Below, in pieces: positions 6,194 through 9,843 of a stretch of 64,000 nucleotides of DNA. Origin of the DNA: Eubacteriales bacterium (lineage in GTDB: Bacteria > Bacillota > Clostridia > Oscillospirales > CAG-382); the NCBI GenBank assembly GCA_045587745.1, contig JAZNCU010000072.1:13069-77068 (forward strand). Reading direction: 5' to 3'. The notes under the pieces were generated by a model. The model had not been told where the DNA came from. It saw only the letters and a list, made by a program, of their open reading frames with translations, and searched no databases. A program made the translations under genes and the position numbers. Each line of letters opens with the position of its first letter. Within the stretch, counting starts at the first letter, position 1.

Positions 6194-7210
6194 CTATCTT
6201 TTATCGCCTCTCCAGGAGTAAGGCAGAATTGCCTCAACGCATTTTGCAACGTCGGCACACGCCTCGGGAGTGAGGGATTGAGGGCCATCGCATTTTGCGT
6301 GTGCAGGATCGTTATGCACCTCGATAATAAGTCCGTCTGCTCCTGCCGCCGCTGCCGCAATAGACATAGGCTTTACGAGCCTCGAGTATCCCGTTGCGTG
6401 ACTGGGGTCGATAATAACGGGCAGATGCGTAAGCCCCTTGAGCACAGGAATGCAAGAAAGGTCAAGTGTGTTTCGGGTTGTGGTTTCAAAGGTGCGGATA
6501 CCCCTCTCGCAAAGGATCACGTTCTCGTTGCCGCCTGCCATAATATACTCGGCGCTCATCAGCCATTCCTGAATGGTGCTCGAAAGACCTCTTTTTAGAA
6601 GAACGGGCTTTTTTTGATGTCCGAGCTCCTTAAGAAGCTCAAAGTTCTGCATATTTCTTGCGCCGACCTGTATAACGTCCACGTCGGCAAACATATCAAG
6701 CTGTGAAAGGTCCATAAGCTCACTTACGATAGGAAGCCCCGTTACGGCCTTTGCCTCGATAAGAAGCTTTATTCCCTCTCCCCGAAGTCCCTGAAACGCA
6801 TAGGGCGAGGTACGGGGTTTGAACGCTCCTCCTCTGAGCAGCTTTGCACCTGCCTCCTTTACCGCAAGAGCAACCTCAATAATTTGCTCCTCGCTTTCAA
6901 CCGAGCAGGGTCCGGCAATAATCGGACAGCTTCCGTCGCCAAAGCTCGCCTCGCCGACGGTAATAATGCTGTCATCGGGGTGGAATTTGCGGTTTGCGTT
7001 TTTATACGGCTCCTGAATACGCTTTACGTCCTCAACGATATCGAGCGAGACGATAAGGTCGATATCAACCTCGGAGGTATCGCCAACAAGTCCGAGTATG
7101 GTCTGCCTTTTACCGACGGTTTTGTGAACCTCGATATTCATATTCTCGAGCCAGTTCACAAGCCTTTCGAGCTGTCTGTCATCGTGATCTTTTTTAAGAA
7201 TTACTATCAT
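6194..7210 (-). CDS. aroF: 3-deoxy-7-phosphoheptulonate (DAHP) synthase, type I-beta, with a ~65-aa N-terminal regulatory-type domain
   Basis: 338-aa ORF. The KDSA/DAHPS I-beta core shows [21 protein letters not shown] and DPSH. The extra N-terminal domain begins [38 protein letters not shown] lies at 7222-7218. Confidence 0.85.
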
Positions 7211-7224
7211 TTTTTGCCTCCTAT

Positions 7225-7256
7225 GTAAAAAGGGCCTCGCAATCGCTGCGAAGCCC
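7225..7256 (-). terminator. Intrinsic terminator (attenuator) inside the aro leader, 15 nt upstream of the aroF RBS
   Basis: The minus strand reads GGGCUUCGCA-GCGAU-UGCGAGGCCC followed by UUUUUAC. That is a 10-bp stem with one G.U pair and a U-tract. Confidence 0.7.
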
Positions 7257-7289
7257 TCGTCCTAACTGAATATTTGACGAAAAACCCGG

Positions 7290-7370
7290 TTATGCAGCGA
7301 AACACGAAAAAGCCTTGCCATAAAACGCAAAGCCAAAATAATAAAAGTTTACTGCAAAAGAAACGGTCAT
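7290..7370 (-). CDS. 26-aa Phe/Tyr-rich leader peptide of the aro operon (MTVSFAVNFYYFGFAFYGKAFSCFAA)
   Basis: Translated by hand. The ATG at 7370-7368 follows GGAGA plus 5 nt, and the ORF ends at TAA. It has 7 Phe and 3 Tyr among 26 codons. It lies between a sigma-A-like promoter and the terminator at 7225-7256. The track shows it only as the tail of the spurious ORF 7290..7634. Confidence 0.65.
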   Translation of the reverse strand: MTVSFAVNFYYFGFAFYGKAFSCFAA

Positions 7371-7402
7371 CGTGTTCTCCGGAATTGTTTTTCTTGCTGA
7401 AT

Positions 7403-7431
7403 ATGATAGCACACAATAATACGTTTGTAAA
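7403..7431 (-). promoter_or_regulatory. Sigma-A-type promoter of the aro leader
   Basis: The minus strand reads TTTACA (7431-7426), a 17-nt spacer, then TATCAT (7408-7403). This predicts a ~185-nt leader. Confidence 0.5.
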
Positions 7432-7515
7432 GAGGTTTTTGCAATTTTTTGAATGTCGCAACACAAAAAACGGGCATATAATAGGATTGACCAATAACTG
7501 TATAAGGGTGATATT

Positions 7516-9843
7516 ATGCCTTTTGGAAAACTCATTATTTCCGTAAGACAGGGCTCGGATTCCCTGCCGATAAAGAATTGCCGTGTGAGGATCGACGGCC
7601 CCGACGGTGTACTGCTTTTTGAGACCGAGATCATCTATCCCCTGCCGGGGGACGAGGTACGCATCGAAACGCCGCCGATTGCGCTATCGCTCAATGAGGC
7701 CAACACCGTCATCCCTTACTCCACCTGCAACGTGCATATACGGGCAGAAAACCATTTCCGCCTCGGCATATTCGGGGTACAGCTTTTTGAGGACAGGACG
7801 GCTTCGCTGACCGCCGAGCTCGTTCCGCTTCCCTCGGGTGACGATTCTCCCGAGAACGAGCCCGAGCTACGCATAGATATACCCGAGCATCAGCTTTTCG
7901 AGAGCGCAGGCGGACGTACGCCCTACCCGCCCGAGGCAAGCACGGCATTCCTTGAATACGAGCCTGCCGTGCCTGCGGTAACCTCGCCTAACGTTTTTGT
8001 GCCCGAATCGGTTACGGTGCATATGGGCGCACCCGACGCCGATGCGGAAAACATAACCGTTTCGTTCCTCGACTACCTCAAAAACGTGGCGTGCAGTGAG
8101 ATATATCCCACCTGGCCGGAGGAATCGCTGAGAGCAAATATAATCGCCCAATGCTCCATCATTCTAAACCGTGTTTATACCGAATGGTACCGTAGCAGGG
8201 GCTACGATTTTGATATTACCAATGACACCGCATACGATCAATCCTTTGTTAACGGGCGGAATATTTTTTCAAACATAAGCGATATCGTAGACTCGTTATT
8301 CAATACGTTCATTACCCGCCCCGGCTCGGTTGAGCCGTTGTTCGCCCAATACTGCAACGGCACGACGAGCACCTGCGCAGGGCTTTCGCAATGGGGTACC
8401 GTTTCGCTTGCGAACAGCGGGCTTTCGTACCGTGAGATACTTGAGTTTTACTTTGGAGACATCGTAATATCCGAAACTGACGACATCCGATCGAGCGAGG
8501 GCTCGTTTCCGGGCTACACCCTACGTCCGGGAAGCAGAGGAAGCGACGTTCTTCTCATTCAGGAAAAGCTCAATCGGATCGCAATAAACTTCCCCGAGAT
8601 TCCGCTTAACAACACCACCGGCGTTTACGATGAATACACACGGCTTGCAGTGGAGGTGTTTCAAAGGCTTTTTTTGCTTCCTGTGACAGGGAATACCGAC
8701 AAAGCGACGTGGTATCGGATAGGATCGATATACGCATCGGTAAAAAGGCTGGCAGAAATAACGAGCGAGGGGCTGAGAGCGAGCTACAACAGTCAGCTTT
8801 ACCCCGGAAAGCCGCTCGAAAACAGCTCCAAGGGAAGCGAGGTACAGGAAATTCAGTTTTATCTCTACCGTATTTCTTTTTTCAACAATGCGGTAACGGC
8901 TCCCCGTATAGACGGAATATACGGAAGCAATACAAGAGATGCCGTAATCAGCTTTCAAAAGGCGTATAATCTGTCCCAAACGGGTATAGTAGACGAGGAA
9001 ACCTGGAACAAGATAGTTGCGGTATACAACGGCTCGAAGGAAAACATAGATGCGCCTCTCGCAACACAGCAGACCGAGCCCTGGGACGGCGCACCGCTTT
9101 ACCGAGGCGACCGTGACAGGCGTGTGGAATACATCCAGACGGCACTCAATGAGATACAAAACGTTTTCGTTATAATTCCCGAGCAGGTGGCAAACGGAAT
9201 CTTCGGCGCAGTAACCGAGAACGCCGTGAATTTATTTTCACAGCTTTTCGGGCTTCCGCAAAACGGCCATATCGACGAGACGCTTTGGAACAAGGTCAAC
9301 CAATTATACGTGGCGGTTTCCTCGGGCTGTGTTTTTGCAAACAGCGCAAGTGCAGGTACACAGCCATACCCGGGAAGCGAAATTGCTCAAGGTGACAGCG
9401 GCAAAAACGTAAGATATATTCAGGAAAAAATAAACCGCATTTACGATTCGATACCCTACGTCGGCTCGCTTGATGTCGACGGAGTGTTCGGCAGCTCCAC
9501 TCAGGCATCGGTCGATACGCTGAGATACGTGTTCGGGCTGACTCAGGGCGGCAGTGTGGATGAAACCACGTGGCTGCTTATAAACTATATTTTTTCGGCG
9601 GTGGAAAACGGATGCCTGCCTCTCTCGGGTGCCGAGACGACGGTTTTTGCTTACAGCAGCGGTATATCCGCCAGAGATCTCAAGGAGCTGATGCGAAAAA
9701 ACGGCATAAGGGTTTCGTCAATGCCGCATTTCGGTTTATCGAGCAAAAGGGCTCTGATGCGCTGGCAGAGCGAAAACGGGCTGCTCCCCACGGGCGAGCC
9801 CGATAACGAAACTCTGCGTATATTATTGCGTAAAATGCGGTGA
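7516..9843 (+). CDS. SpoIID/LytB-domain protein with about five C-terminal PG_binding_1-type repeats (SleC-like cortex-lytic candidate)
   Basis: 775-aa ORF. The central region DYLKNVACSEIYPTWPEESLRANIIAQCSIILNRVY...YDQSFVNG...FAQYCNG fits the SpoIID pattern. From about nt 8515 onward there are repeated ~65-aa units of the type G-S-x-G-x-V-x-x-I/L-Q-x-x-L-N...DG-I/V-F/Y-G...T...AV..FQ...L...G.VD..TW. I see no N-terminal signal peptide. Confidence 0.6.
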   Translation: MPFGKLIISVRQGSDSLPIKNCRVRIDGPDGVLLFETEIIYPLPGDEVRIETPPIALSLNEANTVIPYSTCNVHIRAENHFRLGIFGVQLFEDRTASLTAELVPLPSGDDSPENEPELRIDIPEHQLFESAGGRTPYPPEASTAFLEYEPAVPAVTSPNVFVPESVTVHMGAPDADAENITVSFLDYLKNVACSEIYPTWPEESLRANIIAQCSIILNRVYTEWYRSRGYDFDITNDTAYDQSFVNGRNIFSNISDIVDSLFNTFITRPGSVEPLFAQYCNGTTSTCAGLSQWGTVSLANSGLSYREILEFYFGDIVISETDDIRSSEGSFPGYTLRPGSRGSDVLLIQEKLNRIAINFPEIPLNNTTGVYDEYTRLAVEVFQRLFLLPVTGNTDKATWYRIGSIYASVKRLAEITSEGLRASYNSQLYPGKPLENSSKGSEVQEIQFYLYRISFFNNAVTAPRIDGIYGSNTRDAVISFQKAYNLSQTGIVDEETWNKIVAVYNGSKENIDAPLATQQTEPWDGAPLYRGDRDRRVEYIQTALNEIQNVFVIIPEQVANGIFGAVTENAVNLFSQLFGLPQNGHIDETLWNKVNQLYVAVSSGCVFANSASAGTQPYPGSEIAQGDSGKNVRYIQEKINRIYDSIPYVGSLDVDGVFGSSTQASVDTLRYVFGLTQGGSVDETTWLLINYIFSAVENGCLPLSGAETTVFAYSSGISARDLKELMRKNGIRVSSMPHFGLSSKRALMRWQSENGLLPTGEPDNETLRILLRKMR

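Follow-up and report, generated by a model that had tools for sequence, protein, structure and literature searches.

A predicted ribosome-mediated attenuator with a Phe/Tyr-rich leader peptide upstream of the shikimate/Phe/Tyr operon in gut and rumen Clostridia

Results

A Phe/Tyr-rich leader ORF lies between a predicted promoter and aroF

The 64-kb stretch of Eubacteriales DNA analysed here in full (the window) carries on its minus strand an operon for the shikimate pathway and for phenylalanine (Phe) and tyrosine (Tyr) synthesis, headed by aroF, and the leader of this operon, with its short open reading frame (ORF), is a candidate transcription attenuator. A preliminary description of the leader had listed a promoter, a ribosome-binding site (RBS), a 26-codon ORF with 7 Phe and 3 Tyr codons, a hairpin, a terminator and a complementarity between the last leader codons and the top of the terminator, and had placed them upstream of an aromatic operon. 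All of these elements are present on the minus strand (Table 1), and along the transcript they follow one another as promoter, Shine-Dalgarno (SD) sequence, leader ORF, terminator and aroF RBS. The operon assignment also holds, by Pfam for aroF to pheA and by translation for aroE and aroK. The operon encodes pheA, tyrA and the common pathway without trp genes; likewise, 10 of the 26 leader codons specify Phe or Tyr and none specifies Trp. Three of the Phe codons (7358-7356, 7310-7308 and 7301-7299) lie outside the core run of codons 9-17.

The promoter, predicted by consensus match alone, agrees with the consensus at 10 of 12 positions and has an upstream TG (extended -10, TG-n-TATCAT); it implies a transcription start near 7396. 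Of 57 related loci, 46 have a promoter-like site that agrees with the consensus at 9 or more of 12 positions. The commonest class among these (21 of 46) has the end of the -10 element 30-39 nucleotides (nt) before the leader ATG, and in the window this distance is 32 nt.

Table 1. Features of the leader, the operon and the upstream neighbour in the window
Feature	Position	Strand	Details
Predicted sigma-70-type promoter	7431-7403	minus	-35 TTTACA 7431-7426, 17-nt spacer, -10 TATCAT 7408-7403
Leader SD	7380-7376	minus	GGAGA, 5 nt before AUG 7370
Leader peptide ORF	7370-7290	minus	26 codons plus UAA (7292-7290); MTVSFAVNFYYFGFAFYGKAFSCFAA
Core codon run	7346-7320	minus	codons 9-17 (F Y Y F G F A F Y); inferred ribosome stall zone
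Segment 1	7356-7347	minus	UGCAGUAAAC; 5' strand of helix P1 (anti-antiterminator); directly upstream of codon run
Internal hairpin Pi	7334-7311	minus	GGCUUUGC-GUUUUAUG-GCAAGGCU; -11.5 kcal/mol; five U (U5) at 7310-7306
Segment 2	7303-7293	minus	GUUUCGCUGCA; shared switch strand; ends at leader stop codon 7292-7290
Switch complementarity	7300-7294 with 7249-7243	minus	UCGCUGC (segment 2) with GCAGCGA
Antiterminator extension	7287-7250	minus	GGG/UUUUCGUC (7287-7276) with GACGAGGG/UUC (7261-7250); window folding
Intrinsic terminator	7256-7232	minus	5' arm GGGCUUCGCA 7256-7247, loop GCGAU 7246-7242, 3' arm UGCGAGGCCC 7241-7232; -20.7 kcal/mol; U5 at 7231-7227
aroF RBS and start	7222-7217; 7210-7208	minus	AGGAGG; ATG; downstream of terminator
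aroF (DAHP synthase)	7210-6194	minus	Pfam
tyrA (prephenate dehydrogenase)	6184-5333	minus	Pfam
aroB (3-dehydroquinate (DHQ) synthase)	5336-4287	minus	Pfam
aroA (EPSP synthase)	4297-3050	minus	Pfam
aroC (chorismate synthase)	about 3117-1972	minus	Pfam; longest ORF, TTG start
pheA (CM-PDT, chorismate mutase-prephenate dehydratase)	about 2042-831	minus	Pfam; longest ORF, GTG start
aroE (shikimate dehydrogenase) and aroK	within 1-900	minus	translation; P-loop LIGMPGSGKTT; past window end
SpoIID and peptidoglycan-binding domain gene	7516-9843	plus	divergent upstream neighbour

The Phe/Tyr mini-ORF is conserved upstream of aroF

Relatives of the locus were anchored on DAHP synthase, which gave 80 genome loci with 63-74% protein identity, 76 of which were scored for the mini-ORF; the closest AroF relatives reached 73-74% identity in genome and metagenome scans alike. 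Carriers are labelled Oscillospiraceae, Acutalibacteraceae, Oscillibacter, Faecalibacterium, Angelakisella, Christensenellaceae, Lachnospiraceae and similar. A locus passed if an in-frame stretch with at least 6 Phe/Tyr per 10-residue window lay at most 300 nt upstream of aroF. This was the case in 58 of 76 genome loci. Among background 300-nt windows taken from these loci, 3 of 3,718 passed, and neither the 76 reverse complements nor the 76 shuffled sequences gave a single pass. The result was replicated on an independent set of 80 metagenome contigs (human gut, rumen, bioreactor and sludge): of the 73 loci scored, 51 passed. Together, well over 100 contigs from related gut and rumen Clostridia show this arrangement.

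Typical leaders of the relatives read MSTFTFAAEYRYFSFTYYFGKAYFGLAENECV, MKRNIFAAEYFYFYFINKS and MSSAAQFYFYYYYFFTQKK. Aligning orthologous leaders, a check proposed in the preliminary description, showed that the F/Y-rich mini-ORF is conserved while nucleotides and peptide length drift: the peptides have 14-40 residues or more, and their sequence outside the F/Y run is not conserved. An SD-preceded in-frame start lies upstream of the run in 63 of 68 leaders, as opposed to 12 of 136 out-of-frame controls. In the family runs, Phe and Tyr are each encoded by both of their synonymous codons (Phe: TTT 214, TTC 36; Tyr: TAC 140, TAT 104). At least two Phe and at least two Tyr codons are present in 66 of 69 leaders, and Trp makes up 0.3% of leader residues. 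A hairpin with a U-tract separates the leader stop from the aroF RBS in 68 of 69 leaders (median -19.9 kcal/mol), and the distance from leader stop to aroF AUG, 79 nt in the window, ranges from 66 to 177 nt in the relatives.

Two mutually exclusive RNA folds covary across the family

The sequence elements, their conservation, the covariation of both folds and the mutual exclusivity of these folds were computed directly. Two alignments were used: A1, in which 23 leaders, that of the window among them, were aligned with plain MAFFT and without fitting to any fold, and A3, comprising 44 sequences fitted to a covariance model of the nested fold. Since A3 is biased towards the modelled fold, we placed weight mainly on the counts from A1.

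Four conserved RNA elements are apparent in A1. Segment 1 (consensus GCAGCUGAA, reading Ala-Ala-Glu) lies immediately upstream of the codon run; Pi (consensus AGCUUUACC...GGUAAGGCU) reads Ser-Phe-Thr...Gly-Lys-Ala; segment 2 has the consensus GGUUUGGCUG; and the 5' arm and loop of the terminator, with the consensus CAGCCAAACC, are complementary to segment 2. In the terminating fold, segment 1 pairs with segment 2 to give helix P1 (1:2), Pi is nested within P1 and within the codon run, and the terminator forms downstream. In the antiterminator, segment 2 pairs instead with the terminator 5' arm and loop.

Both folds are supported in both alignments, and in every case 0 of 500 shuffles reached the observed value. 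In A1, 87.8% of cells are paired in the terminating fold (best slid control, 49.6%) with a covariation score of 0.38 (best slid, 0.14), and 85.4% in the antiterminator (47.1%) with a score of 0.23 (0.094). The corresponding values in A3 are 89.7% (47.7%) and 0.50 (0.14) for the terminating fold and 77.6% (45.3%) and 0.22 (0.11) for the antiterminator, to which that alignment had not been fitted. Double-sided changes occur in 24 of 27 pairs in A3, including all 8 pairs of P1. The terminator is 98% paired, with 8-9 of its 10 pairs covarying. Pi is paired in 88.9% of cells in A1 and 94.1% in A3 and has compensatory changes in 7 of 9 pairs, with exchanges such as A-U 23 / G-C 9 / U-A 5.

An alignment-free test, in which the stretch between codon run and terminator was compared with its own dinucleotide shuffles, gave a median z of -1.77 for pairing with the terminator 5' arm and loop; z was lower than -1.64 in 53% of loci. 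Duplexes of segment 1 with segment 2 gave a median z of -1.41 relative to shuffles. In 64 of 68 loci, the sites of segment 2 used for pairing with segment 1 and with segment 3, the terminator 5' arm, share 4 nt or more. The leader stop codon falls in or beyond segment 2 in 35 of 44 members, the window included, and before or inside the 3' arm of Pi in the other 9, which keep the RNA helices. Because the helices persist when the stop codon moves, the peptide motifs AAE, GKA and GLAE are best regarded as imprints of RNA helices. Across Pi, the wobble base of the Gly codon and the first base of the Ala/Thr codon covary.

These results revise one detail of the preliminary description, which had taken the hairpin at 7334-7311 for the 1:2 hairpin of the switch and had let its 3' arm pair with the terminator as antiterminator. 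The hairpin is real and conserved, but it is Pi and sits within the actual 1:2 helix. In the terminating state, the strand with which segment 2 pairs across the family is 7356-7347, upstream of the codon run. Pairing of the Pi 3' arm with the terminator 5' arm does not exceed chance (61.1% paired versus a shuffled mean of 60.9%, a value reached by 230 of 500 shuffles), and we rejected it as a conserved antiterminator, as it shows no covariation and amounts to -9.7 kcal/mol in the window. The complementarity of UCGCUGC with GCAGCGA, pointed out in the same description, proved to be the antiterminator that the family supports.

A further candidate, the outer helix of the window minimum-free-energy (MFE) structure (7392-7376 with 7289-7279), which sequesters the leader SD, was also set aside as unconserved (median z = -0.49, 17% of loci below -1.64). 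Such a helix could limit the leader to one round of translation, an idea we treat as unsupported.

Folding energies and ribosome masking are consistent with a kinetic switch

The 196-nt leader of the window has an MFE of -55.3 kcal/mol (z = -2.58 versus dinucleotide shuffles). Folding the leader and its alternatives, as the preliminary description had suggested, yielded competing structures: -20.7 kcal/mol for the terminator, -18.0 kcal/mol for the antiterminator (7304-7242) and -19.5 kcal/mol for P1 with Pi. The antiterminator is closed by UCGCUGC:GCAGCGA, which together with the extension 7287-7276:7261-7250 sequesters the whole 5' arm of the terminator.

We then folded truncated transcripts, ending at the point where the terminator 5' arm and loop have been made, with ribosome footprints masked. 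When the ribosome was masked at codons 9-17, the terminator 5' arm was paired upstream with a probability of 0.84. With the ribosome at the stop codon, upstream pairing of the 5' arm fell to 0.27 overall and to 0.00 with segment 2.

A simple consensus scan of the minus strand listed Pi followed by UUUUU as the sole terminator-like site and did not list the terminator at 7256-7227; the terminator call rests on the folding results. Pi with its U5 could cause RNA polymerase to pause or could serve as a weak first terminator.

A covariance model recovers the element upstream of aroF

A covariance model of the nested fold (R1) was built with the window among its seed sequences. It matches the 64-kb window once, at 7225-7381 on the minus strand with 87 bits, a match that arises by construction since the window is a seed sequence. 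Beyond the seed, R1 was found directly upstream of aroF in 21 genome loci at E < 1e-5, and 49 of the 80 metagenome loci match at E < 1e-3, again directly upstream of aroF.

Searches against known families gave a different picture. With Rfam 15, no family reached its gathering score on either strand of the 64-kb window, hence no riboswitch or T-box was detected; nor did any family, T-box included, in 12 related loci. The top match to the leader, RF01859 (Phe_leader; 7225-7360, minus strand), is not significant (17.6 bits versus a gathering score of 55, E = 4.5), and its alignment is limited to the terminator and U-rich stretches. The T-box model RF00230 had no match at E <= 10 within 6900-7800, where neither a specifier loop nor a T-box sequence was seen. 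In the searchable literature, which covers few subscription-journal papers, we found no description of the element in Clostridia, Oscillospirales/Oscillospiraceae or Faecalibacterium.

Some relatives depart from the typical arrangement. The lone leader among the 69 without a detectable intrinsic terminator (L009:3787-3968) scores 75 bits with R1; its hairpin (GGGCUCCACAGUG...CGCUGUGGAGCCC) is strong and terminator-like but is not followed by a U-tract. In L045:3744-3923, L046:3752-3931, L054:1129-1275, L079 and L128/L131, aroF begins 100-400 nt downstream of the leader and terminator, and the intervening stretch holds additional sequence and in some cases a second hairpin; an additional regulatory element or a small gene may follow the attenuator in these lineages. 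Clostridia-like aroF genes with 64-72% identity to that of the window were also encountered on contigs binned outside Firmicutes, namely L042, L052 and L070 (Victivallales/Victivallaceae), L004 and L062 (Spirochaet-) and L072 (Bacteroidaceae), and an F/Y-rich leader is likewise present on L052, L070 and L042. This suggests horizontal transfer of gene and attenuator, or mis-binning of the assembled genomes.

The operon and its surroundings

The longest ORFs of aroC and pheA each overlap the preceding gene by about 70 nt; the true starts are therefore probably internal, and the gene boundaries within the operon are approximate. In the translation of 1-900, AroE continues in frame into a P-loop shikimate kinase (...LEMSSIVLIGMPGSGKTT...) with no stop codon between them, which suggests an AroE-AroK fusion or a very tight junction. 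A scan of the 64-kb window for other mini-ORFs rich in a single amino acid, and thus resembling leader peptides, returned nothing convincing.

Discussion

Proposed mechanism

Taken together, the conserved Phe/Tyr mini-ORF, its in-frame starts, the terminators and the covariation of two exclusive folds support the ribosome-mediated Phe/Tyr attenuator put forward in the preliminary description. We consider it very probable that the leader is a classical leader-peptide transcription attenuator that adjusts expression of the shikimate/Phe/Tyr operon to how much charged tRNA-Phe and tRNA-Tyr is available. From the sequence and folding data we infer that the leader is translated, that ribosomes stall on it, that the two folds compete kinetically, and that transcription terminates prematurely in response to Phe and Tyr.

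According to this model, transcription would start near 7396, and the leader would be translated from AUG 7370 while the RNA is still emerging. With Phe and Tyr plentiful, the ribosome would pass the F/Y codons, reach the UAA at 7292-7290, cover segment 2 and then leave. Segment 2, masked or re-paired with segment 1 to give P1 around Pi, would be unavailable to the terminator 5' arm; the terminator at 7256-7232 with its U5 would form, and polymerase would stop before aroF. Under a shortage of Phe-tRNA or Tyr-tRNA, the ribosome would stall in codons 9-17, where it would occupy segment 1 and Pi and block P1. Free segment 2 could then capture the emerging terminator 5' arm and loop through UCGCUGC:GCAGCGA, extended by 7287-7276:7261-7250. 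No terminator would form, and polymerase would continue into aroF-tyrA-aroB-aroA-aroC-pheA-aroE-aroK. For Pi, the scheme suggests a stabilising effect on the terminating fold, a role in pausing RNA polymerase, or both.

Several observations weigh against the attenuator as drawn here. At equilibrium, the full-length RNA forms the terminator at every masked ribosome position (P >= 0.79); the decision between termination and read-through must therefore be kinetic, as the model assumes. The trp attenuator of E. coli is similar in that its terminator is more stable than its antiterminator. Conversely, the MFE structure of the ribosome-free truncated RNA contains the antiterminator, so default termination without translation would depend on P1 forming first, and P1 is the weakest of the helices, with 72% of cells paired. 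In 9 of 44 members the stop codon is so far upstream of segment 2 that a ribosome finishing the leader could not cover this segment, which leaves re-formation of P1 as the only explanation for termination. The relatives are mostly metagenome-assembled genomes (MAGs), some of them labelled Clostridia only. Finally, the leader frame is open upstream to 7634 (114 codons), past the predicted promoter, and contains an in-frame ATG at 7535. AUG 7370 would be the first start codon on the transcript only if the predicted promoter, which lies downstream of that ATG, is indeed the one used; mechanical ORF callers, for their part, report a 114-residue ORF and not the 26-codon leader. This open frame (7290-7634, minus strand) overlaps the start of the divergent gene as well as the predicted promoter.

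Alternative explanations

The alternative that survives best, though we regard it as improbable, is a switch operated by RNA alone or by a factor such as an RNA-binding protein, uncharged tRNA or a small ligand, with the mini-ORF untranslated or incidental to a U-rich leader. It would accommodate the persistence of the conserved helices whether they fall inside or outside the ORF, the stop codon preceding or interrupting the 3' arm of Pi in the 9 members mentioned above, and it gains from the peptide motifs AAE, GKA and GLAE being accounted for by RNA pairing and from leader translation being a prediction. However, the feature common to all members is precisely the in-frame Phe/Tyr run behind an SD-preceded start (63 of 68 versus 12 of 136 controls). 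Use of both synonymous codons for F and for Y, a run that is unpaired or only partly paired, and its match to the end products of the operon all argue against this alternative. In neither the window nor the 12 related loci was a T-box, a riboswitch or any other Rfam family detected, and the leader layout lacks a specifier loop and a T-box sequence.

Marginally less probable still is a leader that acts at another level, through translational coupling, re-initiation that boosts aroF or mRNA stability, with the hairpin serving as a partial, unregulated terminator or as a stabiliser. Leader ORFs have been proposed to enhance downstream translation via re-initiation (PMC4833913), and a terminator that the window RNA always forms at equilibrium would suit an unregulated element. 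Nevertheless, the 79 nt that separate the leader stop from the aroF AUG (66-177 in relatives), with a strong terminator in between, are too far for coupling, and the conserved folds do not sequester the aroF RBS. Moreover, the covariation specifically favours an antiterminator that competes for the terminator 5' arm, as expected for attenuation.

We judge it very unlikely that the mini-ORF encodes a functional small aromatic-rich hydrophobic peptide and forms an independent micro-gene with its own terminator beside aroF. A good RBS, a conserved position and a terminator after the ORF would fit such a gene, but the length of the peptide (14-40 residues or more) and its sequence outside the F/Y run are not conserved, its C-terminal motifs vanish when the stop codon moves while the helices stay, and the mini-ORF is always tied to aroF. 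The covariation of Gly with Ala/Thr codons across Pi points to selection on the RNA and not on the peptide. A chance ORF in a U-rich intergenic region beside the terminator of another unit, for which the ready occurrence of Phe/Tyr codons in U-rich sequence and the 114 open codons might speak, is effectively refuted by the mini-ORF frequencies (58 of 76 observed versus 3 of 3,718 in background and none in 76 reverse complements or 76 shuffles) and by the upstream gene, which is divergent (plus strand, from 7516), so that the terminator cannot belong to an upstream transcription unit.

Relation to known regulators

T-boxes and TRAP are the usual control of aromatic amino-acid genes in Firmicutes. 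Like the attenuator proposed here, they act in the 5' leaders of amino-acid operons by selecting a terminator or an antiterminator, and they serve the same regulatory purpose, whereas their sensor is uncharged tRNA or a Trp-activated protein and here it would be the translating ribosome. The preliminary description had set the leader against this Firmicute background; that contrast is fair as a generalisation, but the element is common in Clostridia, and aroF leader peptides have been reported in Corynebacterium and predicted in Acholeplasma.

The design resembles that of the E. coli pheA leader (pheL; PMC3082878, PMC11802643) and of the trp, his, leu and thr attenuators, with a short ORF that contains a run of end-product codons, alternative helices 1:2, 2:3 and 3:4, an intrinsic terminator ahead of the structural genes, and coverage of segment 2 by a ribosome that has reached the stop codon. 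In contrast to pheL, with which it has no detectable sequence or structure homology (17.6 bits versus 55), the window leader mixes Phe and Tyr about equally instead of using a pure Phe run, would control the common pathway together with the Phe and Tyr branches instead of pheA alone, belongs to a family with an extra conserved hairpin within the 1:2 helix and the codon run, and resides in a Clostridium-class Firmicute.

The closest functional analogue with experimental support is the aroR leader upstream of aroF in Corynebacterium glutamicum, which contains Phe-Tyr-Phe and has been validated (Neshat et al. 2014, via PMC11802643; first noted in PMC4046766). It too places a leader with Phe/Tyr codons, a terminator and an antiterminator before a DAHP synthase operon; its read-through rises by ribosome stalling under Phe limitation, and it is reported to respond to Phe and not to Tyr (PMC11802643). 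It differs in its actinobacterial host, its three regulatory codons (7-12 here) and the content of its operon. Given the phylum distance and a run of three as against roughly ten codons, sequence homology with aroR is unlikely.

Within the predicted elements, uORFC-13-1 (Brewer et al. 2021, RNA Biol., PMC8632094) comes nearest. This predicted upstream ORF (uORF) occurs exclusively upstream of aroF and immediately upstream of an intrinsic terminator, and is described with a promoter, an RBS, a start codon, a U-run encoding 'at least one' Phe and 'another base-paired substructure'; its 24 representatives come from Acholeplasma and from environmental sequences of unassigned origin (PMC8632094). 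The window element fits this verbal description as regards aroF, terminator, promoter, RBS and Phe U-run. Against that description, the family reported here occurs in Oscillospirales and other Clostridia and has long alternating F/Y runs, and none of the carriers among the related genome loci is labelled Acholeplasma. The environmental members of uORFC-13-1 could overlap with our family, and the two could be one family, distant relatives or a case of convergence. Within Firmicutes, 'regular' leader-peptide attenuators have been found to replace T-boxes in the His leader peptides of Bacillus, at a time when leader peptides beyond Proteobacteria and Actinobacteria were regarded as notable (Naville & Gautheret 2010, PMC2965389); amino acid, genes and lineage differ from those here.

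Significance

The accepted view of attenuation is unchanged by these findings. The attenuator proposed here is a regulator of a known kind, in a sequence family and lineage for which we could not find a catalogue entry in Rfam or in the searchable literature. It accounts for an unannotated 300-bp intergenic region and for a recurring hypothetical mini-ORF, and the 44-sequence structural alignment with its covariation provides a ready seed for a new RNA family. Two cultured isolates among the carriers, Oscillibacter valericigenes Sjm18-20 (locus in AP012044.1, near 3.570 Mb) and Angelakisella massiliensis, offer experimental handles.

A more ambitious reading would combine a large uncatalogued dual Phe and Tyr family with the window element as its founding example, its role as the main operon control in Oscillospirales and neighbouring Clostridia, Pi as a lock, and a response to either amino acid; as a whole we hold it only tentatively, and rather doubt that every part applies. 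If it were true, the family would fill for the shikimate/Phe/Tyr operon of gut and rumen Clostridia the role that T-boxes and TRAP play in Bacilli. A covarying hairpin in the codon run, inside the 1:2 helix, would be a feature undescribed for classical attenuators: the stalled ribosome would have to melt Pi, which could act as a programmed polymerase pause or as a lock and so keep transcription in step with the leading ribosome. With F and Y codons alternating in nearly equal numbers, the switch would answer either amino acid, unlike Corynebacterium aroR with its response to Phe only.

The attenuator extends a mode of control long tied to Proteobacteria and Actinobacteria to abundant Clostridia of gut, rumen and bioreactor, in which aromatic amino-acid synthesis appears to be controlled, at the level of transcription, chiefly by this leader. 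It predicts that expression of the shikimate pathway in these bacteria tracks the availability of Phe and Tyr, which would bear on the production of aromatic metabolites in the gut.

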